This document shows positions 1-15,385 of a stretch of 16,453 nucleotides of DNA, piece after piece (the first letter of the stretch is position 1; every line of letters begins with the position of its first letter). The stretch covers positions 1-16,453 of the forward strand of contig JBBQSO010000106.1 in NCBI GenBank assembly GCA_038213805.1. The letters are read 5' to 3'. The notes beneath the pieces were generated by a model. That model searched no databases and was not told the origin of the DNA. It worked only from the letters and a program-made list of their open reading frames with translations. The DNA comes from Planctomycetota bacterium (GTDB lineage: Bacteria > Planctomycetota > UBA11346). The position numbers were made by a program, and so were the translations under genes.

Positions 1-2340
1 TACCACCGGCGACGCCAGCCGGTGGTGCGCCGGGGGCTGCGCGGCGAGCGCGCACAACCTGGCCGCTGCGGTCGCGGTCTCGACGGCGGTCGCGGCGACC
101 GCCGGGTCGATCCACACGTAGGTCAGACCGTCCGGCAGCGGCACCCGGCCGTTGACCAGCGGCAGCTCGCGGCCATCGGCGCCGCAGGCGCGCTGGACGG
201 CGCACGGCAGCTGGACAGTCGCGGCGGAAGCGGGCGCGCCGCCGTACAGCACCGCGACGCAGCTGCCGTCCTCACCACCGGCGAAGACGCGCGCGAGGAT
301 GACCGGCGCGCCGACGCCGCGCAGATCGCCCAGGTAGTGCCGCCCGCCGAGCGCCGACGCCGCAAACGCGTAGGCGGCCATGCTGCGCAACGGGGTCGCC
401 TCGCGGCCCATCATCCCGAAGTTCTTCGGCCCTTCCTCGTAGGAGACGTAGACGAACGGGAAGTAGCGGGCGACGCCGCAGGCCTTGCTCTCGATCGCCT
501 TGGCGGCGATCTCGATCGCGCTGAGCGCATCCTGGTCGTGCACCGGCCGGCCAGGGCCGGCACCCCAAGGCCAGCCGCACTCGCTGTGCCACAGCGGCAT
601 TCCTGCGACGCCCTGCGTCGCCATCCACGCGCGGTACTTCGCGACCATCGCCTCGACACCCGGCGCGCGATCGTAGGAATGGAAGCTGACCACATCCGCA
701 TCGGCGAGCATGCCATTGGCGGCGCAGGTGTCGAAGTACGGGCCCGGCGGCATGGTCGCGAAGACCCCGGCGACCACCGGGGCTGTCGCGCCGGCCGCGG
801 CCAGGGCATAGCTCACTGCCTTCACCGACGGCGCATACTGCTCGGCGGGCACGGTTTTCAGATCCGGCTCGTTGTCGACCTCGACCGCGCCCCAGGCGCC
901 GCTCCAGTGCTTGGCGATGGCGGTCCACGCGGTGGCGACCGCGGACAGGTCCTGCGCGTACGGCGATGCGGCGATCATGCCGTGGTGCCGGGCGCCACCT
1001 TCGAGGATCTCGAGCACTCCGACGTGGCTGGTGGCGTAATCCGCGCGCAGGTGGTCGAAGGCGCGCCCGCCATCCCAATTGTAGGTGGCGGGCTCGGGGT
1101 TGACCGCGCCCAGGCCCAGCCGCTCGCGCGACATGGCGATGCCGCAGCGCGCCAGGCTGCGCACCAGCGCCGTGCGTCGCAGCGGATCGGGCTCCAGCCA
1201 TGACAGCCCGGAATCCATGCAGAAGAACGGGTCGGCGGGCGCGCGCTGCGCGTCGCTGGCGACGATGCCGAACACCTGGTGCGCCGCGGGGAATGCCACC
1301 TCGGCGTAGCCGCGTGCGAAAACGCGCGTGATGGCGACGGTGCCGACCGGCCCAAGCGTCGCGGTCCCGGCGTCGACCGGCCGGCCATCGTAGCCGCTGA
1401 TGGTGTACGGCACCTGATCCGTCGGCCCGGCGGAGGCGACGCGCCAGCGCAGGGTCGCGGCCTGCCCGGGCGTGACAAAGAAATCCGCATGGTCGAGCGG
1501 GGTGAAACCGCTGGCGGCGGCGCTGGCGATGGCGACGCGCCACGCACTCACCAGGGGCATGCCTGCGGTCACCGGCTGGTTGAAGCGGAATCCCGCCGCG
1601 GTCAGCGCGTCGGTGCGCGTCGCCTGCGGCAGGGCCACAGCGTCAAGCACCACGGTCGCGTTGATCCGCACCGTGGCGGTACGCTGGATGGTGTCGACCA
1701 GCAGGTCGAGGTGGTCGGGAGCCTCAGCGTGCAGCAGCGTGGCATCGTTGTGCGTCACGAGATTGACCGTGCCGGCCTGCAGCGCGTAGCCACCCGCGCT
1801 GACCAGCAGGATGAGTTCGCTGTTCACCCAGAAATCGCCGCTGAGATCGCCGCGGCCCAGGCAGATGGCGGTGAAGCCGCTGCCCGTCGCGCGCACGTCG
1901 GCCTGCACGCGGATGGTGCCGGCGACCAGCGGGATGGCGTGGTGCGCGCCGCCGGCCGTGGTGGCGGTGGCACCGACGGCGGTGATCGAGATGCCAGCGT
2001 TTGCACTCCAGGTGGCGGAGCCTTCCGCCAGGGGCGCTCCAGCCAGAGCCGCATTCGACGCATGGCCTGCGCCGGCCACCAGGGGATCGGCGAAGGTCGT
2101 GATGGCCGAGCCGCGTGCCGTCGCGATGTTCGCGACGGGCGCACCATCCGTCGCCGCTGGAGTCGTCCCTGGCTGATGCGGTGCGGGCGTTTCTTCGCCG
2201 AAGCAGGATGAGAACAGCAACAGCAGGGCAGCTGCGGCAGGGCGGACGGCATGGGTCAAGAGCCAGCTTCGGCGGACATGCGCGCCGTGACCACGTGCAG
2301 GGGTCGAGCAGCGTTGGGAGAGCCCAGAGTGCGACATCAT
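1..2340 (-). CDS. Secreted/lipoprotein clan GH-A glycoside hydrolase (GH39/GH5-like TIM barrel with N-terminal beta-rich domain); 3' end runs off the window
   Basis: Hand-translated frame absent from the ORF track: open from ATG ATG at 2340/2337 (upstream GGATGGAAAC; in-frame TGA at 2395-2397) down to base 1, 780 codons. N-terminus ..VRRSWLLTHAVRPAAAALLLLLFSSCFGEE (signal peptide, possible lipobox FSSC). Motifs: VEVDNEPD (acid/base Glu, 868-870), VVSFHSY, PLWHSECGW (nucleophile Glu, 580-582), KNFGMM. TTG at 2259 is an alternative start. Confidence 0.85.
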   Translation of the reverse strand, partial: MMSHSGLSQRCSTPARGHGAHVRRSWLLTHAVRPAAAALLLLFSSCFGEETPAPHQPGTTPAATDGAPVANIATARGSAITTFADPLVAGAGHASNAALAGAPLAEGSATWSANAGISITAVGATATTAGGAHHAIPLVAGTIRVQADVRATGSGFTAICLGRGDLSGDFWVNSELILLVSAGGYALQAGTVNLVTHNDATLLHAEAPDHLDLLVDTIQRTATVRINATVVLDAVALPQATRTDALTAAGFRFNQPVTAGMPLVSAWRVAIASAAASGFTPLDHADFFVTPGQAATLRWRVASAGPTDQVPYTISGYDGRPVDAGTATLGPVGTVAITRVFARGYAEVAFPAAHQVFGIVASDAQRAPADPFFCMDSGLSWLEPDPLRRTALVRSLARCGIAMSRERLGLGAVNPEPATYNWDGGRAFDHLRADYATSHVGVLEILEGGARHHGMIAASPYAQDLSAVATAWTAIAKHWSGAWGAVEVDNEPDLKTVPAEQYAPSVKAVSYALAAAGATAPVVAGVFATMPPGPYFDTCAANGMLADADVVSFHSYDRAPGVEAMVAKYRAWMATQGVAGMPLWHSECGWPWGAGPGRPVHDQDALSAIEIAAKAIESKACGVARYFPFVYVSYEEGPKNFGMMGREATPLRSMAAYAFAASALGGRHYLGDLRGVGAPVILARVFAGGEDGSCVAVLYGGAPASAATVQLPCAVQRACGADGRELPLVNGRVPLPDGLTYVWIDPAVAATAVETATAAARLCALAAQPPAHHRLASPVV

Positions 2341-2616
2341 GTTTCCATCCCGTGCATGCGGCGGCAGTCGGTCACGTAGGTCAGCCTTGTCAGGTCAGCG
2401 CGGTCGATAATCTGAATGAGTAGACCAAATAGATCTGAATTCGTTGACGGACTTCCTGCAAAATGCCCGATCTCCACCACGCAAATAGGCCCATACCGGC
2501 CCTGAATCGCACGCAGGCTCATTGCTGGTCCGTAAGGTGTGGCGGACAGCGCGTCCCTTCCGCGTGTTCACGGCACGTCGCAGGGACCTTGGCTTGGCAA
2601 ATGCTCTGTGACGGAC

Positions 2617-4353
2617 ATGTCTGATGCGACGCGCGGCACTCACCCCTTGGGTGTTGGCCTTACTGATTTCGAGATCCTGCCTCCCGAACGTATCGGCGCC
2701 TATCGGCTCCTTGAGCGCCTGGGCCGGGGCGGCATGGGTGAGGTCTACCGCGCCGTCCATGAAGTGACCGAGCGGGTCGTCGCGCTCAAGGTCGTCGACC
2801 TTGACGATAACCAGTTGCGCCACCACCTCGAACAGGTCACGCGCGAGGCCATGGCGATGGCCTCGCTCCGCGATGCCCACGTCGTCACCTGCTACAGCTT
2901 CGGCGAAGACGGCCGCAAGCTCTTCCTGGCCTTGGAGCTGATGGCCGGAGGCGATACCGCGCGCATGGTGAAGCAGCGCGGGCAGCCCTGCGCGGAAGCG
3001 GAGATCCGCACGTTCGCCAAGGCCTGCGCCCGGGGCCTGGCGGCGATCCACCGCATCGGTCTGGTGCACCGCGACATCAAGCCCTCAAACATCCTGCTCG
3101 ATGCCGCCGGCAACGCCAAGCTGGGTGATTTCGGCTTGGCCTGCTTCCGCGAGGTCGACGGCCAGGAGCCGGTCCGCACCGAGGTCGGAACTCCAGCATA
3201 CATGCCCCCCGAGTCGATCACCGGCGTGTCCGCTCCTGACATCCGCGGGGACATCTATTCCCTGGGCGTGACCATGTACTTCTGGGCGACGGGCGTCTCA
3301 CCCTTCCGGGACGTCAACGGGTATTCAGCCATGCAGCGGGTGCTTGCAGGGGGATCGCCGCCGATCCATGCGTTCAATCCGGGGATCTCGGACGAGCTCA
3401 TCGCCATCGTCGCGCGGGCGATGCAGCCGGACCGTGAGCACCGCTTCCAGGATCCACTGGCCCTGCTCGCCGCGCTGGAGGGCAAGGAGATTGCTCCGTC
3501 GGTGGTGCCGTTGTCCACCACGCCACGCACGGAGGCTCTCCCCACGCACCCCCGCACGGCAACCAGCAGGCGCTTGATCTGGGCGGGGTTGGCGGTGGTG
3601 GTCCTGGTCGTCGCCATGGTCTCGCTGCGCTCTGCGCCTGCTGCGACCGCGAACACGGTGCCCGTTGCTGGTCTTGCCGCCAGCGCTGGCGGTCCCGCTG
3701 CGAGCGCTCTCGGAGGTGGCTACCGGGTGCCCTGGGTCGGCGACGGCCTGGTCCACTTCCATGAGAACGGCGCGGTCAGCTACACCCAGGCGGGACAGAT
3801 GATCCACCTCGCCGAGGAGGGCTGGCTGGATGGCGAGGCGGCGCCCGCCCTCACCGGACTGCTCGCCAGCACCGGCGATATCTCCGTCGAGCTGGCGCTG
3901 CGCCCGGGCAATCTCAGCCAGGAGGGACCGGCGCGGATCTTCTCCATCGGGCTGACGCCGCGGGCCGCCGATCTGATGATCGGCCAGTCCGGATCCCGTA
4001 TCGAGGTGCGGGTGCGCACCAGCGCCACCAACCCCGATGGCACCAGGCCCAACCTGATCAGCGATGATGGCGTGCTGGATGCGGCCTGGCACCACCTGGT
4101 CTTCATCCGCGCGGGCACCCACCACGCGCTGTTCATCGACGGCACCCTGCGCATGGAATGCGACGTCCCCGGCGACCTCAGCACCTGGAACCGGGACTAT
4201 CCGCTCTGCGTCGGCAACGATCATCGCGGTGGTTTTCCCTGGGCCGGCAGCGTCGAGCGGCTCATCCTGGGCGCCCGGGCGTGGAGCGCGGAGGAGGTCC
4301 GGGCCCGCTATGCGGGCTGGCAGCACGCTATGGTCCACACTCAGGCACGCTGA
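2617..4353 (+). CDS. Membrane Hanks-type Ser/Thr protein kinase with C-terminal extracytoplasmic LamG/concanavalin-A-like domain
   Basis: Kinase motifs LGRGGMGEVY, VALK, HRDIKPSN, DFG, GTPAYMPPE, DIYSLG. TM helix LIWAGLAVVVLVVAMVSL. LamG-type motifs ISVELALRP, WHHLVF, LFIDG, PLCVGN, RAWSAEEV. ATG 2617 is preferred over the track's GTG 2539; start uncertain. Confidence 0.92.
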   Translation: MSDATRGTHPLGVGLTDFEILPPERIGAYRLLERLGRGGMGEVYRAVHEVTERVVALKVVDLDDNQLRHHLEQVTREAMAMASLRDAHVVTCYSFGEDGRKLFLALELMAGGDTARMVKQRGQPCAEAEIRTFAKACARGLAAIHRIGLVHRDIKPSNILLDAAGNAKLGDFGLACFREVDGQEPVRTEVGTPAYMPPESITGVSAPDIRGDIYSLGVTMYFWATGVSPFRDVNGYSAMQRVLAGGSPPIHAFNPGISDELIAIVARAMQPDREHRFQDPLALLAALEGKEIAPSVVPLSTTPRTEALPTHPRTATSRRLIWAGLAVVVLVVAMVSLRSAPAATANTVPVAGLAASAGGPAASALGGGYRVPWVGDGLVHFHENGAVSYTQAGQMIHLAEEGWLDGEAAPALTGLLASTGDISVELALRPGNLSQEGPARIFSIGLTPRAADLMIGQSGSRIEVRVRTSATNPDGTRPNLISDDGVLDAAWHHLVFIRAGTHHALFIDGTLRMECDVPGDLSTWNRDYPLCVGNDHRGGFPWAGSVERLILGARAWSAEEVRARYAGWQHAMVHTQAR

Positions 4354-4395: not shown

Positions 4396-5526
4396 ATGTT
4401 AGAGATCTGCGCTGATGCCGATGCCGCCCTGATGATCCTCGCTGAAAAGCGCGGTTTGCTGACCCCTGCCCAGATCGAGCAGGTCACGCGCACGCGGGGA
4501 CGCCGCTCAGCCGCCGTCGCCCTGGTCCAGGATGGCATCCTGGACGTGCAGGCGGTGCGTGCACTTCGCACGGCGGTGCGCAAGCACTCCATCGATCATG
4601 CAATAGATGGCTATGAACTGCAGGGCAAGCTCGGCAGCGGGGGCATGTCCGAGGTGTTCAAGGCCATCGACCTGGTTTCGCGCAAGCCGGTGGCGATCAA
4701 GGTCGTCGCGCCGCGTCGCCCGGGTGATGGCCTGTTCCTTGAGCGCTTCCAGCGCGAGGCCCGGGCGGCTTCCGCGGTCGACCACCCCAATGTCATCGCC
4801 TGCTACGGGACCGGGCAGACCCACGGCAAGGCCTACATGGTGCTCGAGTACATGCCCGGTGGCGACCTCGAGGGCCTGGTCGACCGGGCGCAGGGCCGCC
4901 TGGATGAGGCACTGGCGCTGCGTATCGCCAGGGATTGCGCGCGCGGTCTGGTGGCGGTGCATGCCCACGGGCTGGTGCACCGCGACGTCAAGCCCTCGAA
5001 CATCCTGCTGGCCGCCGACGGGACCGCGAAGCTGGGCGATCTTGGTCTGGCCAAGAGCACGGCGCCGGACGACCAGCTCACCATGCCGGGCATGCGCGTG
5101 GGCAGCCCAGGCTATGTCTCGCCGGAACAGGCCAGCGGCGCGAGTGAGACCGACATCCGCAGCGACATCTTCAGCCTGGGTGCGACTCTCCACCATCTGT
5201 TCTCGGGGCGCAGCCCCTTCAGTGGTGGCAGCCCGCTCGAGATCATCATCAACACCATCCGCCTCGATGCGCCACCGCTGAGCGTGACCGCACCCTGGGT
5301 TTCGCCGCGCATCTCGGCGGTGGTCGCGAAATGCCTGGCGCGTCGTCCGCAGGACCGCTACCAGGATCCAAGCGAATTGGCGGATGCGCTGCAGCAGATC
5401 CATGAGGGCGCCCCGGTGCACACCACGGTGCGCCGCGTCCGCCGCTACACCGCCACCAGGGTCACGGCGTGGGGCATGCTCGTGCGCCGGCTGCTGACTG
5501 GCATCGGTCTGCGCCAGGCTGGTTGA
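4396..5526 (+). CDS. Cytoplasmic Hanks-type Ser/Thr protein kinase with short helical N-terminal domain
   Basis: Motifs LGSGGMSEVF, VAIK, RFQREA, HPNVI, HRDVKPSN, DLG, GSPGYVSPE, SDIFSLG. Strong RBS GGAGGAG at 4383-4389, 42 bp downstream of the first kinase. Confidence 0.93.
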   Translation: MLEICADADAALMILAEKRGLLTPAQIEQVTRTRGRRSAAVALVQDGILDVQAVRALRTAVRKHSIDHAIDGYELQGKLGSGGMSEVFKAIDLVSRKPVAIKVVAPRRPGDGLFLERFQREARAASAVDHPNVIACYGTGQTHGKAYMVLEYMPGGDLEGLVDRAQGRLDEALALRIARDCARGLVAVHAHGLVHRDVKPSNILLAADGTAKLGDLGLAKSTAPDDQLTMPGMRVGSPGYVSPEQASGASETDIRSDIFSLGATLHHLFSGRSPFSGGSPLEIIINTIRLDAPPLSVTAPWVSPRISAVVAKCLARRPQDRYQDPSELADALQQIHEGAPVHTTVRRVRRYTATRVTAWGMLVRRLLTGIGLRQAG

Positions 5527-5532
5527 GCGACA

Positions 5533-6828
5533 TCACCGGATCACCACCCGCACCACGTTGCCGGGGATCAGATCAGGCTTGGGCACATCCAAGTCGATGC
5601 GCACGTAGACGGCGCTCGGATCGGTGATGCGGTCGCGCAGCGACGGATGCACCTTGTACTGGATACCGCCGCCGGCCGTGATCCGACCCGGGATGCCGTG
5701 CACGCCGGTGGTCGGGTAGACGGTGACCTGCGCCTTGAGGTGCAGGTCGCGGGCGCGTTCGGGTGGGACGAAGGCGTTGATCCACAGTTTGCCGGTGCCC
5801 GAAACCGACATCAGTTCGGCGTCCTTGGGGACGTTGCTGCCGTCGGTGACGAAGACCTCGGTGACCACGCCGTCGGCGAGTGCCCGGACCTCGGTCGGAC
5901 CCGCGAGCTTGCGCAGGTTGGCGACCCGCGCCTCCAACCCGGCGATGCGCGAGCGAATGTTGTCCAGGCCGCGCTCTCTGATGCGCTGCAGCTCGACGCG
6001 CGCCTGCGCATAGAGCGTGGTCAGGGTGTCCACGTAGCCCTTGCCGACCTCCACCGCGGCCTTGTCCGCCTCTTCTTCACGTGCCTGGCGGGCGTTCTCC
6101 GCCTCCTGGGCTGCGAGCGCGCCGGCGAGCTGGGCCTTGGCATCATCACGTTCGTACAGGGACAGGCGCTCGGCCTTCTGCGCTTCCTCCTCTTCGGCGG
6201 GCAGCGCTGCGCCCTGCGCCAGCAGCGCCTGCACCACCGCGAGACGCTTCCCACGCTCCTCGACCAGGCCGTCGCGGAACGAGACCTGCCTGGTCAGGCG
6301 CTCGATCTCCTGCTTCTGCCGCGCTGCAGTGGTCTCGCGCTCGCGGGTGGTAGTCTCGGCGTGCCGCTGGAGCTCATTCAGGCGGCTGCGCGCGCCTTCC
6401 AGATCGCGCATCTCGACCGCGGGGTCATCGAAGGCAGCCTGCTTCTGCTCGACCATGGTCTCGAGAATGCCGCGCTGCTGCACCAGGATCTCCTGCGCTT
6501 CCTTCAGCTCGGTCTGCGCGTCGTCGGAGACCAGCACGCACAACACGGTGTCCGCCGCCACACGGTCGCCGGGCTCGGCGTGCACACTCACGACGCGCGA
6601 GCGTACCGGGGCGTGGAACACCTCGACGCCAGTGGCGACCACGCCATAGCTGTAGATGTTCTCGCGATCATAGAGCCACCACGCCAGCATCGCGATGAGC
6701 GCGAGTGCCAGGGCAGCAAGCAGGATTTTACCCATCGGCAGCGGGTGCGGACGCGCCGCCTTCATCGCCGTCTGTTCGGGGGAGACCGGCGCCTGCTGCT
6801 TGGCGTTGGGGGCGAACGTGAGCTTCAT
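5533..6828 (-). CDS. HlyD-family membrane fusion/periplasmic adaptor protein (431 aa)
   Basis: Start re-called at ATG 6828 (MKLTFAPN), which overlaps the upstream stop as ATGA. TM ILLAALALALIAMLAWWLY; lipoyl half-motifs APVRSRVVSVHAEPGDRV and ALADGVVTEVFVTDGSNV flank a ~208-aa E/Q/R/A-rich coiled coil; C-terminal barrel LWINAFVP..LIPGNVVRV. Confidence 0.88.
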   Translation of the reverse strand: MKLTFAPNAKQQAPVSPEQTAMKAARPHPLPMGKILLAALALALIAMLAWWLYDRENIYSYGVVATGVEVFHAPVRSRVVSVHAEPGDRVAADTVLCVLVSDDAQTELKEAQEILVQQRGILETMVEQKQAAFDDPAVEMRDLEGARSRLNELQRHAETTTRERETTAARQKQEIERLTRQVSFRDGLVEERGKRLAVVQALLAQGAALPAEEEEAQKAERLSLYERDDAKAQLAGALAAQEAENARQAREEEADKAAVEVGKGYVDTLTTLYAQARVELQRIRERGLDNIRSRIAGLEARVANLRKLAGPTEVRALADGVVTEVFVTDGSNVPKDAELMSVSGTGKLWINAFVPPERARDLHLKAQVTVYPTTGVHGIPGRITAGGGIQYKVHPSLRDRITDPSAVYVRIDLDVPKPDLIPGNVVRVVIR

Positions 6829-9800
6829 GGCGGATTCCCTGGGAGGTGCGGCGGCGCTGCGGGCTGGGTCGGCGATGGCGGTGCGGGCATCACGGCGGCG
6901 AGATCGTGGATGGCGGTGCGGTGGCTCGGTGACGTCCCGCCGCTCAGCGTGGCCAGGCTGTGGCGCAGGGCGTCGAGCCGCGCCGGCGTGATCCCGCGCA
7001 GCGTCTCGTCCGCGGGCGATCCGGAGCCCAACTCGATGCCGAACTCGAGCTCCTTGGGCCAGACCGAGAGCGCTTCCCTGGCGAGTGCGATGACCCGTTC
7101 CGGGTCGGCGCTGTAGCACAGCGCGGTGGCGCCATCCGTGGTGGCGGCGATGGCCGTCAGCAGATCGCGCTGCTCGGCGCGGAAGAACTGTGCTGGGCAG
7201 TCCACCCACAGCGTCGCCGGCTGTTGCGTGCGCGCTGCGCGCAGCAATTCAAGATAGCGGTTCGTCAGCGCCGCGCGGCGCTCGCCACCAGCGGCCCAAC
7301 CCGGGTCCGCCTGCGGCTCCAGGTCCAGTTTCAGGCCCTGGAAGCGGTGCGCGGCGTGCTCTTGGAACGCGGCCAGGCGTCGGCATGCGGGGGCGAGGCC
7401 ATCGGCGCCCTGCAGCCACTCCGGTTCGCCGAGCAGCGCCCAGACCGCTATCCCGGCCTGCTCGGCGCTGGCGATGAACTCCCCGATGGAGGTGGCGGAT
7501 TCGCCCTCCAGGACGGTGCCCGTGGCGCCGATGTAGAGGTAGATGCGATTGATGTGGGCGGTCGTGGCGGTGGCGAGTGCCGCCACCCCATGGTCTGCGA
7601 GGAGTTCGTCGCGGTGCCAGGCCCACGTCGATGCCGGTGCGGTAATCCCCGCGGCGTGGTCCACGTCATCACCGCCCGGGGCGGTCACGCCGGCGCCCGG
7701 CGCAGCAATTGCGGGTGCAGGTGCTGCGCTGAGTCCTTGTGCGAGCATGGCGGCGAGACCCTGGGCCTGGCTGATGCGGATGTAACGCTCAGCCACCAGC
7801 TGCCAGGCGTCCGCCTGCGCGCGGTGCGCCAGCAGCGCCGTCCGCTCGATGTCGATCAGCCCGGTCGCGGTGAGCGGGGCGTCACCACCCACTTGGCCAC
7901 GCTCAGCGCGCAGGTGCGCCACGCGCAGCGTTTCCTGCGCCGCGCGCAGCGCCGCGCGCCCCGCGTCCAGCTCGCCGCGCGCCTGATGGTAGGCGGCCCA
8001 CGCCTCGGCAAGATCGTGGCGGATGACCAGGGCCGCAGCCTCCTCGCCAGAGCGCAGAGCCTCCTGGAGGCGCTCCTGGTAGGCGCGGTCGAGATCGCGG
8101 TCCTTGAACCACCCGAGCGGCAGATTGCCGGACAGGCCCAGGCTGGTGAAGTCGTCGACCGGGTCGGTGCCGTAACGCGCCGAGTAGGAATACCCGGCGC
8201 TGACCGCGACCGTGGGTCGGTAGCGTGAGCCGGCCTGAGACGAGAAGAACGCCTCGCGCAGCGCCGCGTGCGCGGCGCTCATGGCCGGATGGTTGAGCAG
8301 CGCGACCCGCAGCAGGTCGGGATACTCATCGACCGGCAGTTCCCAGGATGCCGGCGCTCCCGGCTCGGTGGGGGTGCCCGCAGCAAGCCCGCACAGGCCA
8401 AGGATGCGCTCGCGCAGGATCCGCTGCCAGCGCTCATCGCTGGCCACATCGCCCCGGCGCTTGACCCGTTCCTGCTCCAGGATCAGGTCCTGTTCCAGGC
8501 CAGAGCGGCCGGCCTTGCGCTGCTGGTCGATCACGCCGGCCGCGCGTTCCGCCAGCGCCGCAAGATCACGATCGCGATCCAGTCGCTGCCCATACGCCTG
8601 CCAGGCGACGAAGGCCAGCGCCGCATCTGCCTGTTGGCGGTTCACCTCTTCGGCCAGCGCGTCGCGGGCGATGCTCGCGCGCACGACGCCCGCTTCGCTC
8701 AGGGCGTGGTTGCGGTCCCATTCGAAGAGCGGCTGTGTGACCCCAAGCACCCCGCGCAGCACGTTCTGGGCGAGGTAGTCGCCAGAAAAGGTGGTGGGAT
8801 TGGTGAAGATCCCGACCGCGGGTGTGTAAAAGGCCCCGAAATTGAGCGTCGGCAGATTCGCCAGACGCAGCTGCCGCGCCTCGATGAGCGCCGCGGCAAG
8901 CAGGGCGCGACGCCGCAGCACGGCCGGATTGCGCGCCTCGACCAGGGCGGCCACGTCCTTCAATTCAAGATGCTGCGGGATTTCGATCAGCCGCGGTCGC
9001 AGGTGGCCGTCGACGGTGGCGAAGGCGATGCCCGTTTGGGGACCGGCCGTGACGGCGCCTTGGGCGTCCTCCTTCCAGGGGACGGGCGCGGAAGCATCCA
9101 GTCCGCAGTGGAAGAGCTGGAAGCTGCCGGCCGGATCAGCTGCGAAGACCATGCCGGTGCCATCCGCGCGCAGGCTGCGTACATCGTAAGCTTGGCCCGC
9201 TAGCAGCGCGCGCGGCGCCTGGCCCTCGGCATCCATGGCCATCAGCAGGTGGTGCGCATCATCGGCGCGATGCAGCCACGCCACCGCGCCGCTACTGCCA
9301 ACGGCGATGGGCAGCGCGTTGCCGCCATCGCTGGTCAGCCGGGCACTGCCGGCGTTGCCGACCTGCCCCTGGTCCACGGTGAAATCGAAGCGGAACACGT
9401 CGAGCGCACCATCGCCCAGCGTCTTCCCGACCAGCAGGCTGCGGAAGATCCGGCACTGCGGACCCGCCACCGCCGTGAAGCGGAAGGTGCGCGGATCGAG
9501 CAGCCAGGGCCCGCCCACGCCCGGCTGCGTGCGTATGGCGAAGAGCGCGACGTCCTCGCGCCCGACGTCTTCCGCACCAGGCTCGCGCGGCAGGGGGTCG
9601 GCGCCGGATGGATCCAGACGAAAGCCCACCATGCGGATGCCGTCCCGGCCGAGATCATCGACCAGGCGCTGATCCCCGCTGGCCAGCGGTTGGGCGAGCC
9701 CCGTGTAGAGCCGCCGCTGCGCGGCGTCATCGGATTCCTGCTCGACGGCGGCCTGGTCACGGCGTGCACACGCGGCCAGGACGAGACCGAGCAGCGCAGC

Positions 9801-9884
9801 CAGCCCGAGGAGCGGCAGCACCGGGCGCGTGCGCCTGCCGGACGTCGCCGGGCAGCGTGGGGACATGGTTGGGGGCCTGCTCAT
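6825..9884 (-). CDS. TolC-family outer-membrane efflux lipoprotein fused to an N-terminal TolB-like propeller region and a C-terminal glycoside-hydrolase-like TIM barrel (1019 aa)
   Basis: Lipobox LAAC (Cys39, 9768-9770). Two OEP repeats: ARNPAV..LPTLNF..VTQPLFEW and LLNHPAM..RPTVAV..GNLPLGW. Ala/Pro linker, then TWAW..NRIYLY..GIAVWALLGEPEW..RFQGLKLDLEP. ATGA overlaps at both ends. Confidence 0.85.
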   Translation of the reverse strand: MSRPPTMSPRCPATSGRRTRPVLPLLGLAALLGLVLAACARRDQAAVEQESDDAAQRRLYTGLAQPLASGDQRLVDDLGRDGIRMVGFRLDPSGADPLPREPGAEDVGREDVALFAIRTQPGVGGPWLLDPRTFRFTAVAGPQCRIFRSLLVGKTLGDGALDVFRFDFTVDQGQVGNAGSARLTSDGGNALPIAVGSSGAVAWLHRADDAHHLLMAMDAEGQAPRALLAGQAYDVRSLRADGTGMVFAADPAGSFQLFHCGLDASAPVPWKEDAQGAVTAGPQTGIAFATVDGHLRPRLIEIPQHLELKDVAALVEARNPAVLRRRALLAAALIEARQLRLANLPTLNFGAFYTPAVGIFTNPTTFSGDYLAQNVLRGVLGVTQPLFEWDRNHALSEAGVVRASIARDALAEEVNRQQADAALAFVAWQAYGQRLDRDRDLAALAERAAGVIDQQRKAGRSGLEQDLILEQERVKRRGDVASDERWQRILRERILGLCGLAAGTPTEPGAPASWELPVDEYPDLLRVALLNHPAMSAAHAALREAFFSSQAGSRYRPTVAVSAGYSYSARYGTDPVDDFTSLGLSGNLPLGWFKDRDLDRAYQERLQEALRSGEEAAALVIRHDLAEAWAAYHQARGELDAGRAALRAAQETLRVAHLRAERGQVGGDAPLTATGLIDIERTALLAHRAQADAWQLVAERYIRISQAQGLAAMLAQGLSAAPAPAIAAPGAGVTAPGGDDVDHAAGITAPASTWAWHRDELLADHGVAALATATTAHINRIYLYIGATGTVLEGESATSIGEFIASAEQAGIAVWALLGEPEWLQGADGLAPACRRLAAFQEHAAHRFQGLKLDLEPQADPGWAAGGERRAALTNRYLELLRAARTQQPATLWVDCPAQFFRAEQRDLLTAIAATTDGATALCYSADPERVIALAREALSVWPKELEFGIELGSGSPADETLRGITPARLDALRHSLATLSGGTSPSHRTAIHDLAAVMPAPPSPTQPAAPPHLPGNPP

Positions 9885-11434
9885 GCCTTCGGCGCTCCGC
9901 GACCGTGCGAGATCTCGTCATCGGCCAACACCAGCAGGTCGCTGGCGGTGGTGCTTCCCGGGGCCAGCGCGCCCACCGCATCGTGCATCAGTGCCTGGGC
10001 GTCGGCGTGTTCCGCGCGCGCGACAACCACGGCGATGATCAGTTCCTCGGCCATCTGCCCGGCGTCGCTGCGCGCCTGGAACACCGCCGAGATGCGCTGC
10101 GCCACCACCTCGGCGCCGGCGAGCGGCGTGGACGGCAGCATCAGGGCGAGCGTGCCCTCTTCCCAGATGCACGGCACATCCAGGGTGCGCAAGCCCGTCG
10201 TGGCCGCCTTCCACAGCTCCTGGACATAGTGCATGTAGCCGTCCAGACCGCCGCTGCGCACGTCCTCCAGCCGCGTGGCGCGCACCATCACCAGCGACAC
10301 CGGCGTGGTATAGCGCTTCAGCCGCTCCAGCTCGCGCTGCAGCGAATAGAGGAAGAAACTCTTGGCGTAGAGGCCGGTGCCGGCCTTGCGCAACACATTC
10401 GCCATATCCCAGCCGGAGAGGTCCTGGGCCGCCACCACCTCATCGGCCCGCGGGGTGAGGTCATAGGCGTAAACCAGTCGCTCGACCGTGCGCTCCGGTT
10501 CGACATGGGTCTTGCAGGAATGGCAGCGCGCCTGCACGCGCGTCTCGGATGAGATGAAGGCGCAGCTCCGGCACACGTAGCAGCCCGTGGGCTTCTCGTA
10601 GTCGCGGCCGATCTGGCGCAGCTGCACGCGGCACTTCGGGCAGACCAGGTCCTGCCCCTGGGTGAAGTTCGAGAGCGTGTCCATGTGTGCGCAGGCGAAG
10701 TGGTGAATGATGGTCTCGCGCACGAAATCGACGGAGCCGCACCGCGCGCACGACTCGCCATAGCTGAGCTGGTGGCAGGCGCACGACGGGCAGGCGCGCA
10801 GCCGTTCGACGATGGTGCGCTTGCAGATGCCCTGCTGAACCAGGCGTTCGAGCAGCGCGACCTGGTCGACGGCCATGCCCAGGGTGCGCGCGACCTGGGG
10901 GTAACGCCAGCCGTCGATGTCGTCCACCGTCAGCTGTGGCTGCACGCTGCGCTGCCCGGATTCGATCAGCGCGCCGACCAGGTCGAGACAGCGCTGATCG
11001 TCCAGCGGCGGGCGGTTGCGGGCGAGCACGTGCAGCAGGGTGCGCTCGATCTCCGCGAGCAGCGCGGCGCGCGACCTGGGCAACTCGAACACGCGGTCGC
11101 GGCCGGCCCGCAGTCCGCCGGCGGCCGCCGCCGCGACGTCCTGGACCAGGTAGAGCACGGCAGAGAGGTTGCCACGCAGGGCGGGGTGGCGCGCCAGTTC
11201 ACCCATCGGCGAGGCGCCGGTGATGGCGACGATGCACAGGTCGTAGTGGCGGTCGGTGATGCCGATCTCCCACGTACCGCTCAGCACCACCCCCTCGACC
11301 TCGAGCGGGACGACCGTGGCATCGCCGTGGCCCAGCACCGGGACCACGCGCAGTTCGGCACCGATGGTCTCGCGCAGCTCGAGGCAGCCGAGGTCGTCAT
11401 CGCAGATCAGCAGGATGCGGCAGGGTTCGCTCAC
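9881..11434 (-). CDS. Pseudo-receiver + TackOD1-like multi-Zn-ribbon + degenerate GGDEF protein (probable c-di-GMP receptor)
   Basis: REC-like ILLICDDD..YDLCIVAI..FELP. Cys/His pairs CPSC, CARC, HFAC, CPKC, CRSC, CHSC (10514-10792). GGDEF-fold signature TGLYAKSFF..LQRELERLKRY..SLVMV and RTLD-VPCIW-EEGTL (10148-10189). GTG start with GGAG upstream. Confidence 0.85.
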   Translation of the reverse strand: MSEPCRILLICDDDLGCLELRETIGAELRVVPVLGHGDATVVPLEVEGVVLSGTWEIGITDRHYDLCIVAITGASPMGELARHPALRGNLSAVLYLVQDVAAAAAGGLRAGRDRVFELPRSRAALLAEIERTLLHVLARNRPPLDDQRCLDLVGALIESGQRSVQPQLTVDDIDGWRYPQVARTLGMAVDQVALLERLVQQGICKRTIVERLRACPSCACHQLSYGESCARCGSVDFVRETIIHHFACAHMDTLSNFTQGQDLVCPKCRVQLRQIGRDYEKPTGCYVCRSCAFISSETRVQARCHSCKTHVEPERTVERLVYAYDLTPRADEVVAAQDLSGWDMANVLRKAGTGLYAKSFFLYSLQRELERLKRYTTPVSLVMVRATRLEDVRSGGLDGYMHYVQELWKAATTGLRTLDVPCIWEEGTLALMLPSTPLAGAEVVAQRISAVFQARSDAGQMAEELIIAVVVARAEHADAQALMHDAVGALAPGSTTASDLLVLADDEISHGRGAPKA

Positions 11435-11452: not shown

Positions 11453-12778
11453 TCAGAAGCGCGGCGCGTTGCGCCAGGCGGATTGCGGCAGGAAGGGATC
11501 CTGCTGGTTGAGGCGCAGGATCTCCATCACGGTGGCGTAGATGCGCACCCAGCGGAAGAACACCTCGTTGTAGAGCGGCAGGAGCGGCGCCCACGCCAGC
11601 ATCCACAGCTCATCACGCCGGCGCTCGCTGGATACCAGCGCGGTGGTCACGCTCAGCGTCGACAGCAGCGCATAGACGGCCAGGCAGATGGCCATGACGC
11701 CGACCAGCACGACGGGCGCGACGACGATCATGACCGCCAAGTAGACCACATAGAGCAGGTTCGCGATCACCGAGACCAGCAGCACCTGCCCGAGTTCGAC
11801 CGCCATCAGGAACCCATATCGGCGTCCGTTGAGCAGCTCGAGGTGCTTGCGGAAGGCCACCCGCACCAGGTCGCGGTCCCAGCGGATGCGCTGGCGGACC
11901 AGCGTCTTCAGGTTCTCCGGGACATCGGTGGTCGCGATGGCGCGCGGGGCGAATACCGTGCGCCACCCCGCGCGGTGCGCCTTGAGTGTGTTGTCGAGAT
12001 CCTCAGCCGTCGCCACATCGCAACCTCCAAAACCATCAAACGCCGCGCGGCGGTAGGACACACAAGCCCCGCTGGCGATATAATTGGTGCCGAACAGGCC
12101 AAGCCAGCGCCGGTGCAGGCCGATGGCGATCACGTACTCCACCGCCTGCATGCGCGTCCAAAACGAGGCCGCATGGTTCCGCACCTTGAGGTTGCCCGCA
12201 ACCACCGCCACCCGCGGGTCGCAGAAGGGGCCGATGAGGTGCCGCAGCAGGTCGCGATCGAAAGAGGTGTCGACGTCGAGAAAGACGAGGAACTCGCCAT
12301 TGGCCATGCGCGTGCCGAGGTTCTGGCCACTCGGCTTGCCGCCGCGCCCAGTGGCGGCCGAATTGCGCACCAGCCTGATCAAGCCGCGCTGCGCGTAGGG
12401 CAGGGCGCGCGCATAGGTGCGATCTTCCGAACCGTCATCGACCACGATGATCTCAAGGTTCGGGAAGCCGGTCTCGAGCAGGGATTCGATCGCGGGAATC
12501 ACCGCGGCCTCTTCGTTGTACCCCGCCAGCACGACGCTCACGCGCGGCGCGGTGGCCAGGAAGCGATCATGTGCGGCCGAGGTATCCCGCGGCAGGCCGA
12601 GGGAACGCATGACCAGCAGCACTACGGACGGACCGAGGAAGCGCCGCAGATCGAAGAGGATGAATGGCAGGAAGACGACCAGCAGCCACCAGCCCTGCTC
12701 GCCGCAGTACTGTATCCACCCATGCCAGGCCTCTGCGCAGGCGAAGCGTATACGGTCAAGGAGATCAAGCAGCCCCAT
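11453..12778 (-). CDS. Processive family-2 glycosyltransferase (PgaC/IcaA/HasA/Alg8-like polysaccharide synthase)
   Basis: Motifs GYNEE, VVDDGSED, GGK, FLDVD (DxD), SGA, AEDLD (TED-like) and QRIRW (QxxRW, 11879-11893). N-terminal TM and several C-terminal TM helices. Confidence 0.92.
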   Translation of the reverse strand: MGLLDLLDRIRFACAEAWHGWIQYCGEQGWWLLVVFLPFILFDLRRFLGPSVVLLVMRSLGLPRDTSAAHDRFLATAPRVSVVLAGYNEEAAVIPAIESLLETGFPNLEIIVVDDGSEDRTYARALPYAQRGLIRLVRNSAATGRGGKPSGQNLGTRMANGEFLVFLDVDTSFDRDLLRHLIGPFCDPRVAVVAGNLKVRNHAASFWTRMQAVEYVIAIGLHRRWLGLFGTNYIASGACVSYRRAAFDGFGGCDVATAEDLDNTLKAHRAGWRTVFAPRAIATTDVPENLKTLVRQRIRWDRDLVRVAFRKHLELLNGRRYGFLMAVELGQVLLVSVIANLLYVVYLAVMIVVAPVVLVGVMAICLAVYALLSTLSVTTALVSSERRRDELWMLAWAPLLPLYNEVFFRWVRIYATVMEILRLNQQDPFLPQSAWRNAPRF

Positions 12779-13093: not shown

Positions 13094-14047
13094 TCAGCGC
13101 AGGCAATCGCCGATCATCGCACCGAGATCCAGCCCCTGCTTCCAGCCGGTAAGCCGCTGCAGCTTGCGGATGTCGGGCACGCGCCGGCGCATGTCCTCGA
13201 ACCCGCCCTGGGGGAAGGCCTCGGCGTAGGGGACGTCGCGGATGCGCGAATTGCTGCCGGAGGTCGCGATCACGCGCTCGGCGAGGGCGCGCATGCTGAT
13301 CTCCTCGCCACCCCCGATGTTCACCACCTCGCCCACCGCCGCCGGGCACGCGAGCAGGGCGACGATGGCGGCGACCGCATCGGCGACGTGCAGGAAGCAG
13401 CGGCTCTGCGCGCCGTCGCCGTGCACCTCCACGTCGTGGCCGCTGCGCGCCGCCTGGCAGAAGCGCGGCAGGACCATGCCGTAGGCACCCGACTGGCGCG
13501 GCCCGGTGACGTTGAAGAAGCGCCCGATGACGACCGGCAGGCCGCGCTCGCGGTGGTAGGCCAGCGCCTGGAACTCGTCCAGCAGCTTGGAACAGGCGTA
13601 GCTCCAGCGATGCAGGCGGCTGGCGCCCAGCACGCTGTCATCGTCCTCCGCGAACGGGGTGCGCTCAAGCTTGCCGTAGACCTCGCTGGTCGAGGCCAGG
13701 AACAACGGCAGCCGGCCGTGGGCGGTGGCGGCGCGCAGCACCACCTCGGTCCCGCGCACGTTGGTGACGATCGACGCCACCTGGCGCTCAAGGATGCGCC
13801 GCACCCCGACGGCCGCGGCGAGGTGGATCACCGCGTCGACGTTGGCGCAGGCCTCGTCGACCACCAGCTCGTCGCAGACCGAACCGTGGATCACGCTCAA
13901 CCGCGCATCGTGCGCCGCCGCACGCAGATTGCTGAAATCCCCCGTGCTGCCGTCGTCGATCACCGTCACCGCCGACCCGCGGGCGAGCAGCCATTCGACG
14001 AGATGACTGCCGATGAAGCCGGCTCCGCCGGTGACGAGGTAGCGCAT
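13094..14047 (-). CDS. NAD-dependent NDP-sugar epimerase/dehydratase/decarboxylase (extended SDR, ArnA/UXS-like), 317 aa
   Basis: Start re-called at ATG 14047: MRYLVTGGAGFIGSHL. Motifs HLAA, ASTSEVYG, RWSYACSK (YxxxK), RFFNVTGPRQ, GDGAQSRCF, DMRRRVPD. Confidence 0.93.
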   Translation of the reverse strand: MRYLVTGGAGFIGSHLVEWLLARGSAVTVIDDGSTGDFSNLRAAAHDARLSVIHGSVCDELVVDEACANVDAVIHLAAAVGVRRILERQVASIVTNVRGTEVVLRAATAHGRLPLFLASTSEVYGKLERTPFAEDDDSVLGASRLHRWSYACSKLLDEFQALAYHRERGLPVVIGRFFNVTGPRQSGAYGMVLPRFCQAARSGHDVEVHGDGAQSRCFLHVADAVAAIVALLACPAAVGEVVNIGGGEEISMRALAERVIATSGSNSRIRDVPYAEAFPQGGFEDMRRRVPDIRKLQRLTGWKQGLDLGAMIGDCLR

Positions 14048-14560
14048 GGCGAGGGACGCTAGGGAGGGTCCGCGCGGTCGCCATGGAGAGTTTGCAGTGG
14101 GTTGGGCGGGCCCCTTCCCCGCAGCCCTGGTTGCAAACTTGGCGCTGTACCGGAGGGAGCGCGAGGCGGATGTGGCGGTCCGGCCGGCCCAGTTCAAGAC
14201 CCGCGGCGAAGGAGTGGGAACCAATGACCCGGGTCGCGCGACCAGTTTTGGCGCCTCCTGGCGATGGGCTGCAGTAGGGTGTCAGCGTTCAACCGCGAGT
14301 ACGCGTACATGAACGCTGCCTTAGGAGCAGACGCCTAAGACGAAAAGGCGTAAAGAGCATTAAGACCGGAATGAAGTCATAACGGCATTTAAGAGACACG
14401 CGCATAAAACGCTGCAATGCGCAGGACCATAAAACCGCACAATCTTGCATTACGCAGCACACAGAAAACAGCAGACGGGCAAAAGCCCGACGAGCTTGTG
14501 TTTAATCCAAACACGCACCTGGTACGGTTCCCGCTACACAGTTCAAACCGGAGATCCTTC

Positions 14561-15385
14561 ATGACGTTCCAGTCCATACCCCTTTCTCTGCTCACACTCC
14601 TCGCAGGACTTTGCTGCTCGGCTCAAGGAGCCGACAACCAGAACAATAATTCGCAGCTCGGAAACACCGATAACGCCGGCAGTTCGAATAACGGATCGCT
14701 GAATTTATTCGATCGCGGCGGCCCGGTCGGATACTGGGCATTCGACGAGGGCAAGGGTTCCGTAGCCCATGACTCGAGTGGCAATGGCTACGACGGGACC
14801 ATCGTCGGCGCATTATTCACCCCTGGCGTGATCGGCACTGCGCTCGAGATGGGCCAGGACCGCTATGTCATGATCGGACGCGAGAAGGAACTCGCTCTCT
14901 CCGATACTATCACCATCGCGGCGTGGGTGCGGGCTGGCGACGCAGGCGAGACCTCCTTTATGCGCATCCTCTCCAAAAAAGCGGACTTTCCCACTCGCGA
15001 TGGGTACGAGATGGAGTACAATTTCCGTACGGGGGAACTTGATGTCATCGGCAGCGGCGACCTCATTTGCCGCGCCTCCGGCGTCCATCTGGATGGCAAC
15101 TGGCATCATCTCACGGGAGTGATCGACAAGGACAGGGGCCATCTCTACGTGGATGGCATCGAGCGTCCAAGCACCGGACTGGTCGGTAAGCCCAAAAAAG
15201 ACAAGACCACCCCGGTGGTCATCGGACGACTCGCCGGCAAGCCATTCGCTTTTTTCTACCGCACGCTGGATGAAGTGCGGCTCTATGACTATGCCCTGAC
15301 GCCCGCCGAAGTTGCGGCGCTGGTGCTGCTCAAGTCGCCACTTTCGGGTGGCGGCCTTCTGGGCCTTCCCAATGGGAATGGATGA
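14561..15385 (+). CDS. Secreted LamG/concanavalin-A-like lectin-domain protein (274 aa)
   Basis: Start re-called at ATG 14561 (GGAGA at 14550-14554). Signal peptide MTFQSIPLSLLTLLAGLCCSAQG|AD; Asn-rich linker; motifs VGYWAFDEG..DSSGNG..TIAAWV..WHHL..LYVDG..LDEVRLYDYALTPAEV. Confidence 0.9.
   Translation: MTFQSIPLSLLTLLAGLCCSAQGADNQNNNSQLGNTDNAGSSNNGSLNLFDRGGPVGYWAFDEGKGSVAHDSSGNGYDGTIVGALFTPGVIGTALEMGQDRYVMIGREKELALSDTITIAAWVRAGDAGETSFMRILSKKADFPTRDGYEMEYNFRTGELDVIGSGDLICRASGVHLDGNWHHLTGVIDKDRGHLYVDGIERPSTGLVGKPKKDKTTPVVIGRLAGKPFAFFYRTLDEVRLYDYALTPAEVAALVLLKSPLSGGGLLGLPNGNG

Follow-up and report, generated by a model that had tools for sequence, protein, structure and literature searches.

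A TolC-family channel fused to a predicted glycoside-hydrolase-type barrel in a conserved, putative exopolysaccharide export cassette

The window analysed here is the entire 16,453-nt contig JBBQSO010000106.1 (C106), which belongs to a Planctomycetota draft genome of 5.5 Mb in 180 contigs, estimated to be about 90% complete. Its G+C content is near 0.70. The reverse strand encodes a 1019-aa outer-membrane protein (OMP) of the TolC family, in which the channel core is followed by a linker and by a C-terminal domain (C-domain) resembling a glycoside hydrolase. The parts of this gene are given below, with model confidence expressed as the predicted local distance difference test (pLDDT).

6825..9884, reverse strand: OMP gene (P0001), encoding a 1019-aa, most likely lipidated TolC-family protein with extra N- and C-terminal domains; defined by its open reading frame (ORF), the Pfam OEP match and full-length relatives
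9768..9884, reverse strand: signal peptide and lipobox L-A-A-C (Cys39), read from the sequence, with lipidation predicted
8925..9767, reverse strand: N-terminal beta-rich domain (N-domain), residues ~40-320, beta-propeller-like (TolB/DPP-IV type) by AlphaFold, Foldseek and weak profile matches
7734..8924, reverse strand: TolC/OEP outer-membrane-factor core, residues ~321-717, matched by Pfam OEP in two stretches
7632..7733, reverse strand: Ala/Pro-rich linker (~34 aa), residues ~718-751, read from the sequence; pLDDT 69 in the first 10 residues of the C-domain model
6885..7631, reverse strand: C-terminal (beta/alpha)8 glycoside-hydrolase-like domain, residues ~752-1000, by model, fold matches and profiles
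7314..7346, reverse strand: RFQGLKLDLEP, the beta-4 motif, residues 847-857, with D854 at 7323-7325 and E856 at 7317-7319
7113..7115, reverse strand: Tyr924, just past beta-6, aligned with the Tyr of the GH18 MxYD motif by hhalign and hmmsearch
6828..6884, reverse strand: Pro-rich C-terminal tail, residues ~1001-1019, probably disordered (sequence; pLDDT 56-76 in the last blocks)

An initial annotation, made from the sequence, had described an Ala/Pro linker followed by about 250 residues of alternating beta/alpha pattern and had proposed a TIM barrel. The linker is present, and the proposed fold was borne out by an AlphaFold2 model of residues 742-1019, based on an alignment (A1) of 97 sequences comprising the window domain and 96 family proteins. 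The model contains eight strand/helix units and has a mean pLDDT of 92.8 and a predicted template modelling score of 0.89. A Foldseek search of the PDB returned, among the matches listed, only TIM barrels, with mostly glycoside hydrolases at the top; these included Cwp19 (E 1.9e-7), the GH18 chitinase 6k7z (TM-score 0.60), GH20 and GH10 enzymes and the hydrolase domain of PgaB (6au1). VIA-align likewise recovered Cwp19 (Z 18.6), many GH18 proteins (Z 15-17), GH1 enzymes, PgaB (6au1, Z 16.2; 4f9d, Z 15.2) and the spore cortex-lytic GH18 enzyme SleL (Z 16.7). The C-domain is therefore predicted with high confidence to be a (beta/alpha)8 barrel of the glycoside hydrolase type.

As a single sequence, the C-domain had no match in Pfam (E up to 10), in NCBIfam or among PDB sequences. 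An exhaustive HMMER search with the domain recovered 299 representative clusters at E<=1e-3, including 41 at <=1e-10 and 15 at <=1e-30 (best 3e-86), well outside what chance would yield. A profile (A2) of 45 mostly stand-alone homologues matched the PDB entry 10yv ('Putative GH97 from Cellulomonas fimi', 275 aa) end to end with an E-value of 8.8e-38; next came the GH18 chitinases 5xwf (E 3.1e-5) and 9buf (E 5e-3) and chitotriosidases at E ~0.05. In the alignment to GH18, the family consensus GlhLDiE-P lies over GLNLDWEYP and MaY lies over MAYD. Furthermore, an hhalign comparison with a reference alignment of bona fide GH18 domains, taken from the genome of the window and its relatives, gave a probability of 74.9% (E 2.6e-5) over 109 columns spanning strands 4-7, pairing RFQGLKLDLE-P with IFDGIDVDWEYP and ATALCYSA with FNIMAYDF. 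These two profile alignments agree with the earlier suggestion that RFQGLKLDLEP is the equivalent of the GH18 beta-4 motif; the motif itself had been read correctly, and its end coordinate had been placed three bases short (7314-7343 in place of 7314-7346).

Paired in this way, E856 corresponds to the catalytic Glu of GH18, D854 to the last Asp and Y924 to the Tyr of MxYD. The GH18 strand-4 motif is DxxDxDxE, which is not complete in the C-domain, where the aligned residues are Q849, K852, D854 and E856. With GH18 chitinases and endo-beta-N-acetylglucosaminidases (PF00704) the domain shares the (beta/alpha)8 barrel, a strand-4 pattern F-x-G-x-x-x-D-x-E-(x)-P and a Tyr after strand 6, whereas it differs from classical chitinases in being a short barrel (~250 aa) that lacks their insertions. 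PF00704 itself gave weak matches in three of the 45 relatives (best 27.4 bits against a threshold of 29.6) and was the sole Pfam family matched by more than one of them. A language-model atlas look-up placed the C-domain nearest to GH18-like and DUF4015 clusters. The homologue search with the A2 profile returned 10 proteins, none informatively named, and a plasmid tblastn search gave two Bacillaceae matches in uninformative contexts. Conserved blocks of the family are WxW, GEPxW, LDxEP, MxY and HD(Y), and all near-invariant columns are present in the window copy. As judged by these comparisons, the C-domain family is a distinct and unnamed one, apparently a remote relative of GH18 and not a member of it.

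The entry 10yv is the only solved structure of the family. It is a true member, possessing the W-x-W start, the LD-x-EP motif and the H-x-Y end seen in the C-domain; unlike OMP, it is a free protein from a Gram-positive host with no channel, and the Tyr position is Phe in the alignment. No paper on 10yv was found in the open-access literature searched. A GH97 identity for the family was considered and rejected, since no GH97 structure occurred among the 47 Foldseek and 50 VIA-align matches listed. GH97 enzymes are, in addition, much larger. Because both profile and fold searches tie the family to GH18-type barrels, the 'Putative GH97' label may be wrong.

Residue conservation was counted in a hidden Markov model alignment of 180 domain rows from 155 proteins, split into OEP-fused and other rows. 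The initial annotation had noted that D-x-E is kept in the window copy, and the same holds across the family: D854 is Asp in 56/58 OEP-fused and 94/98 other rows, and E856 is Glu in 54/58 and 94/98, respectively. Y924 is Tyr in 53 of the 58 fused rows and in 91 of 96 others, so that the three positions are conserved in 91-97% of rows, fused and unfused alike. The K852 position is more variable, with Lys in 35 and His in 20 of 58 OEP-fused rows, and Gln in 39 and His in 36 of 98 other rows. Further conserved positions are W754, W756, E820, W823, D895, E947, H993 and D994. In the model the conserved residues sit at or just past the C-terminal ends of strands 1, 3, 4, 5, 6, 7 and 8; strand 6, for example, spans model residues 177-181 and Y924 is model residue 183. 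The C-terminal strand ends form the active-site face of TIM-barrel enzymes, and the position of the conserved residues there suggests that they line a cleft.

These counts bear directly on whether the barrel acts on glycan or simply binds it. A non-catalytic module might hold or chaperone the nascent polymer, or dock the channel to the adaptor or synthase. Such a role would fit the replacement of two of the four GH18 motif acids (Q849, K852), the loss of the Asp or Glu in a few family members (e.g. P0038, P0063 and P0064) and the failure of the window copy to match the Pfam GH18 model. However, the residues of GH18 chemistry (the last Asp, the Glu and the Tyr) are kept in more than 90% of about 150 rows, both fused and free, which is the pattern predicted by purifying selection on catalysis. 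Loss of the Glu is characteristic of chitinase-like lectins. The conservation of D-x-E and the Tyr thus favours an enzyme over a lectin, and we consider a purely binding role unlikely.

The fusion of barrel and channel is genuine. As the window spans one entire 16.4-kb contig and the draft assembly has 180 of them, one might suspect that separate TolC and hydrolase genes had been wrongly joined during assembly or gene calling, a concern that the initial annotation had itself raised. The OMP frame is, however, stop-free across all 1019 codons, and G+C at third codon positions (GC3) is uniform: 0.83 for the gene, 0.86 for the C-domain part and 0.82-0.86 for each third, like the neighbouring genes. 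Six close relatives of 888-1042 aa, one of them named only 'TolC family protein' in a Planctomycetota metagenome-assembled genome (MAG), have the same architecture in uninterrupted frames of ~1000 aa, as do dozens of 50%-identity clusters and a complete Desulfoluna genome with a 998-aa ORF. Since the fusion recurs in 21 loci from independent assemblies, including this complete genome, the artefact explanation can be ruled out.

The 21 loci with a related OMP were obtained by scanning one genome per species with a profile of full-length relatives (A3); their hosts belong to Planctomycetota, Brocadiaceae, Desulfobacteraceae and Desulfoluna, Hydrogenedentota, Rhodothermaeota and Proteobacteria. 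Among these hosts are three cultured Desulfoluna strains. Two evenly drawn samples of 401 genomes each yielded the C-domain in 24 genomes for the phylum of the window and in 12 for that of a Parvularculaceae MAG; the former sample included three genomes from the genus of the window (86-89% complete), none of which gave a match. Genome G000 has one C-domain copy. Within the family, OEP was detected at E<=1e-3 in 57 of the 154 proteins scanned, two of them under the gathering score. The OEP-fused forms comprise ~35 proteins of ~1000 aa with the N-domain and ~23 of ~700-800 aa without it, and the non-fused proteins comprise secreted stand-alone forms of ~290 aa, forms of 430-630 aa with N-termini of no recognised kind, and three with two tandem copies of the barrel and no OEP (P0089, P0070 and P0051). 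In a ladderised FastTree phylogeny of 149 domain segments, the ~1000-aa forms lie side by side at one end, and there are 31 label changes; many of these changes come from truncated metagenomic gene calls, and no number of fusion origins was concluded from them.

Two loci show further arrangements. One Planctomycetota contig (L055, G203:C62) has a stand-alone domain at 2884-3717 and an OEP-fused copy of 710 aa (9607-10389) 6 kb downstream, with TackOD1 and GT2 genes in between. In a Proteobacteria MAG (L021, G411:C132:245370-245918) a barrel remnant, a 157-aa ORF with one TGA within the match, lies directly before an HlyD gene, with neither GT2 nor TackOD1 detectable nearby; this locus looks like a decaying cassette.

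The remainder of OMP is that of a divergent channel protein. Pfam OEP (PF02321) matches the core in two stretches (E 7.3e-21; 75.3 bits against a cut-off of 22). As a single sequence the core had no match in the PDB. With the A3 profile it aligned with the gonococcal channel MtrE (4mt0, E 5.7e-8) over MtrE residues 146-436 of 447, and the alignment reaches far enough to show that the channel fold is complete before the linker. The score against the NCBIfam TolC subfamily model is 37, far under the cut-off of 225, and the core is therefore a divergent member of the TolC family. The lipobox Cys39 is invariant in 23/23 full-length relatives, which makes OMP most likely an OprM-type lipoprotein. 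The conserved N-domain of ~280 aa lies between this Cys and the core and, like the lipobox, had been missed in the initial annotation. It has no Pfam match; its AlphaFold model (pLDDT 85.5) consists mainly of strands, the Foldseek matches are TolB and DPP-IV propellers (E 2e-5 to 1e-4, with TM-scores of only ~0.3), and profile matches to TolB are weak (E 8e-4 to 8e-3).

The initial annotation had assumed that the channel belongs to an exopolysaccharide synthase system, and such a context was indeed found, both in the window and in related loci. The neighbouring genes on the same strand are as follows.

5533..6828, reverse strand: HlyD-type membrane-fusion (adaptor) protein, 431 aa (Pfam HlyD_3, HlyD_D23), whose ATG overlaps the OMP stop codon (ATGA)
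9881..11434, reverse strand: TackOD1 zinc-ribbon protein with a degenerate GGDEF domain, MxdA-like (Pfam TackOD1, E 7e-44; GGDEF, E 2.7e-5), with a 4-nt overlap with the OMP start
11453..12778, reverse strand: processive membrane GT2 synthase (MxdB/PgaC/NodC-like), 441 aa (Pfam GT2 families)
13094..14224, reverse strand: NAD-dependent sugar epimerase/dehydratase, upstream of the synthase and outside the conserved core (Pfam Epimerase, E 7e-51; NCBIfam LegB/RmlB/GalE-like)

The order in the cassette is thus GT2 synthase, TackOD1/GGDEF-like protein, OMP and HlyD adaptor, and the genes for the regulator, synthase and adaptor are all in the window, translationally coupled and conserved in relatives. 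The synthase has the motifs DDG, DVD, AED and QRIRW together with hydrophobic terminal segments. Its best NCBIfam matches were PgaC_IcaA, the poly-N-acetylglucosamine (PNAG) synthase model (1.2e-44), and NodC (4e-32), both far under their cut-offs. In the GGDEF-like domain of the regulator, EEGTL takes the place of GGDEF, and RTLD stands five residues ahead of it. As this spacing is the canonical one and no active site remains, only the inhibitory site (I-site) is kept, and the protein is probably the cyclic di-GMP (c-di-GMP) receptor of the cassette.

GT2 and TackOD1-GGDEF genes lie directly upstream of the OMP gene in all 14 loci where the OMP gene is full-length and the upstream DNA is long enough, and TackOD1 is upstream in 15 of the 21 related loci. 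An HlyD gene directly follows OMP in 19/21, one of the exceptions ending 90 nt past the OMP gene. In Desulfoluna limicola the four-gene cassette is confirmed by Pfam matches. The association extends to copies that are stand-alone or part of shorter fusions: in at least 8 of 13 further loci such copies have homologous GT2 and/or TackOD1 genes no more than a few kb away, and three of the remaining five are short contigs. Thus, the C-domain family accompanies the Mxd-type synthase both as a channel fusion and in unfused form. TackOD1 was not found in 14 control genomes. The epimerase/dehydratase recurs only in L003, the closest relative having upstream sequence.

Here 'Mxd-type' denotes the type of gene set. 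The mxdABCD operon of Shewanella oneidensis is a biofilm polysaccharide operon; the account in PMC3691769 gives MxdA an effect on c-di-GMP, describes MxdB as a membrane GT2 and likens MxdC to a component of efflux pumps, with no homology known for MxdD. The cassette shares with this operon an MxdA-like regulator, an MxdB-like GT2 and an efflux-adaptor-like component; the gene order differs, and the sections of that account bearing on the operon describe no dedicated outer-membrane gene (PMC3691769). An export route by way of an HlyD-like adaptor and TolC-type channel has been suggested both for the mixed-linkage glucan of rhizobia, made by BgsBA (PMC13438883), and for cyanobacterial cellulose (Maeda 2018, cited in PMC8892547); both systems, as presented in these sources, combine a GT2 synthase, an HlyD-like adaptor and a TolC-type channel, as the cassette does. 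They differ from it in that rhizobial bgsBA is bicistronic with TolC encoded outside the operon (PMC13438883) and that the cyanobacterial system has a separate BcsZ homologue. The channel of the window is, by contrast, dedicated, apparently lipidated and equipped with two extra domains. The TolC used by rhizobial BgsBA is the general-purpose TolC of the cell. From these export precedents and the mxd gene set, the cassette can therefore be read as an Mxd-type tripartite exporter with a dedicated channel.

Synthase-dependent secretion of polysaccharides such as cellulose, alginate, Pel and PNAG is central to biofilm biology. To our knowledge, almost every such system has a periplasmic glycanase, the exact role of which is debated. 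BcsZ, PslG, PelA and AlgL are separate periplasmic enzymes for which trimming, release or clearance of the polymer has been proposed. Together with the C-terminal domain of PgaB (GH153), which is also a structural neighbour of the C-domain, they resemble it in proposed function and in being encoded with the synthase; they are free or TPR-associated and belong to other families, whereas the C-domain is covalently part of the channel.

We propose, with a probability of roughly 60%, that the C-domain is a periplasmic glycanase within an Mxd-type, probably c-di-GMP-gated, tripartite exopolysaccharide exporter. Fold prediction, remote homology, residue conservation, fusion and gene neighbourhood were computed; the periplasmic location, catalysis, substrate, trimer geometry and c-di-GMP gating are inferred. 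The GT2 synthase would make and translocate the polymer, probably gated on c-di-GMP by the TackOD1/GGDEF-like protein through its retained RxxD, and the HlyD-type adaptor would bridge the synthase to the channel. TolC and OprM structures show a trimeric channel with both termini of each protomer in the periplasm; this would leave three hydrolase domains hanging in that compartment on flexible linkers of ~34 residues, beside the adaptor-channel junction. There the C-domain would most likely cleave the polymer of its own system, with trimming or release of chains and removal of material that has escaped into the periplasm. The GH18-type Asp-Glu-Tyr set and the PgaC/NodC-like synthase suggest a polymer containing N-acetylhexosamine.

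Several points weigh against this proposal. The list of fold matches is flat, as is typical of TIM barrels, and singles out no one family; it therefore defines the fold class and does not pick the family, and its top match, Cwp19, is titled in the PDB only as a functional region of a C. difficile wall protein. The single-sequence searches of Pfam and the PDB were empty, and the link to GH18 consists of profile matches with E-values around 1e-5 and, for strands 4-7, an hhalign probability no higher than 75%. Replaced in the strand-4 motif are the first Asp (Q849) and the middle Asp (K852), and the Asp that follows the GH18 Tyr is Ser in the window copy and mostly Arg or Phe elsewhere in the family. 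The cleft is predicted from strand positions, and the label of 10yv given by its depositors is neither supported nor explained by our searches. Additionally, polymer inside a sealed adaptor-channel tunnel would not meet a periplasmic domain during normal export.

Wall-acting proteins among the structural matches raise the possibility that the barrel instead remodels peptidoglycan, cutting a GlcNAc-containing wall glycan so that the adaptor-channel tunnel can assemble through the sacculus. Dedicated wall hydrolases do open the sacculus for other trans-envelope machines, and both Cwp19 and SleL are wall-acting. Moreover, the 847-aa relative P0126 has an AMIN domain, a peptidoglycan-binding module, before its OEP and barrel, and a Bacillus plasmid homologue is annotated 'amidase'. 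The position of the tether would also suit such a role, as it lies near the adaptor-TolC junction, where a review places the peptidoglycan in its treatment of AcrAB-TolC (PMC8892547). Conversely, the family tracks Mxd-type GT2 and TackOD1 genes even in the absence of a channel fusion, and ordinary TolC systems need no such domain; in a flat list of folds the first place of Cwp19 weighs little, and the 'amidase' annotation is unverified. A role in wall remodelling therefore seems to us unlikely beside cleavage of the exported polymer.

The middle-Asp position prompts a different suggestion. Lys or His there (35 and 20 of 58 rows, respectively) is specific to the channel-fused copies and hints at altered chemistry, and retaining GH18 enzymes can transglycosylate. 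The barrel might accordingly act as a transglycosylase that joins the exported chain to a cell-surface acceptor or to other chains. Our results offer no direct support for such a reaction, however, and the periplasm is poorly placed for attachment to a surface acceptor; we regard it as improbable.

Each type of component of the cassette is already known, as is the presence of a periplasmic glycanase in synthase-dependent systems. What is new is the covalent fusion of a glycanase-like domain to a TolC-family channel, of which no description (for any TolC/OEP protein and any glycoside hydrolase) was found in the open-access literature searched; the tie between an unnamed hydrolase-like family and Mxd-type synthases; and the conservation of the four-gene cassette across several phyla. 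The fusion would fix the place and stoichiometry of the glycanase-like domain, at three per channel, and, as the domain is welded to the exit channel, the purpose of the hydrolase becomes directly testable by domain deletion and point mutants, for which the cultured Desulfoluna strains with the full cassette are possible hosts. The locus also provides a first functional context for a family of at least 299 clusters, covered by neither Pfam nor NCBIfam and publicly labelled only 'TolC family protein' or 'hypothetical', and for the recently solved and doubtfully labelled 10yv. Furthermore, it extends the small group of HlyD/TolC-type polysaccharide exporters (mixed-linkage glucan, cyanobacterial cellulose and Mxd) to Planctomycetota, Desulfobacterota, Hydrogenedentota and others. 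A bolder proposal, which we advance tentatively as somewhat short of an even prospect, is that OMP is the first recognised TolC-family channel with its own enzyme, and that the unnamed GH18-related family represented by 10yv serves as a dedicated subunit in a c-di-GMP-gated tripartite exopolysaccharide machine that is widespread and unstudied; hydrolases tethered at the adaptor-channel junction would then determine chain length or polymer release, and MxdD of Shewanella may be the same domain in free form.

The rest of the window holds genes outside the operon. The open frame at 1-2340 (reverse strand) continues past the end of the contig; it comprises 780 aa and has a coding-like GC3 of 0.87, no Pfam or NCBIfam match and no counterpart in the syntenic relatives L002 and L003. 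Upstream of the operon, 14417-15385 (forward strand) encodes a protein of 322 aa, which carries a Laminin_G_3 (concanavalin-like) domain and weakly matches the TafC family of fimbrial proteins. Facing the end of the HlyD gene are tandem genes for Ser/Thr protein kinases at 2539-4353 and 4396-5526 (both forward strand), the first with a C-terminal Laminin_G_3 domain. The same kinase pair lies beside the cassette in L002 and L003, and kinases adjoin the GT2 gene in L005; these may represent a regulatory link within Planctomycetota.

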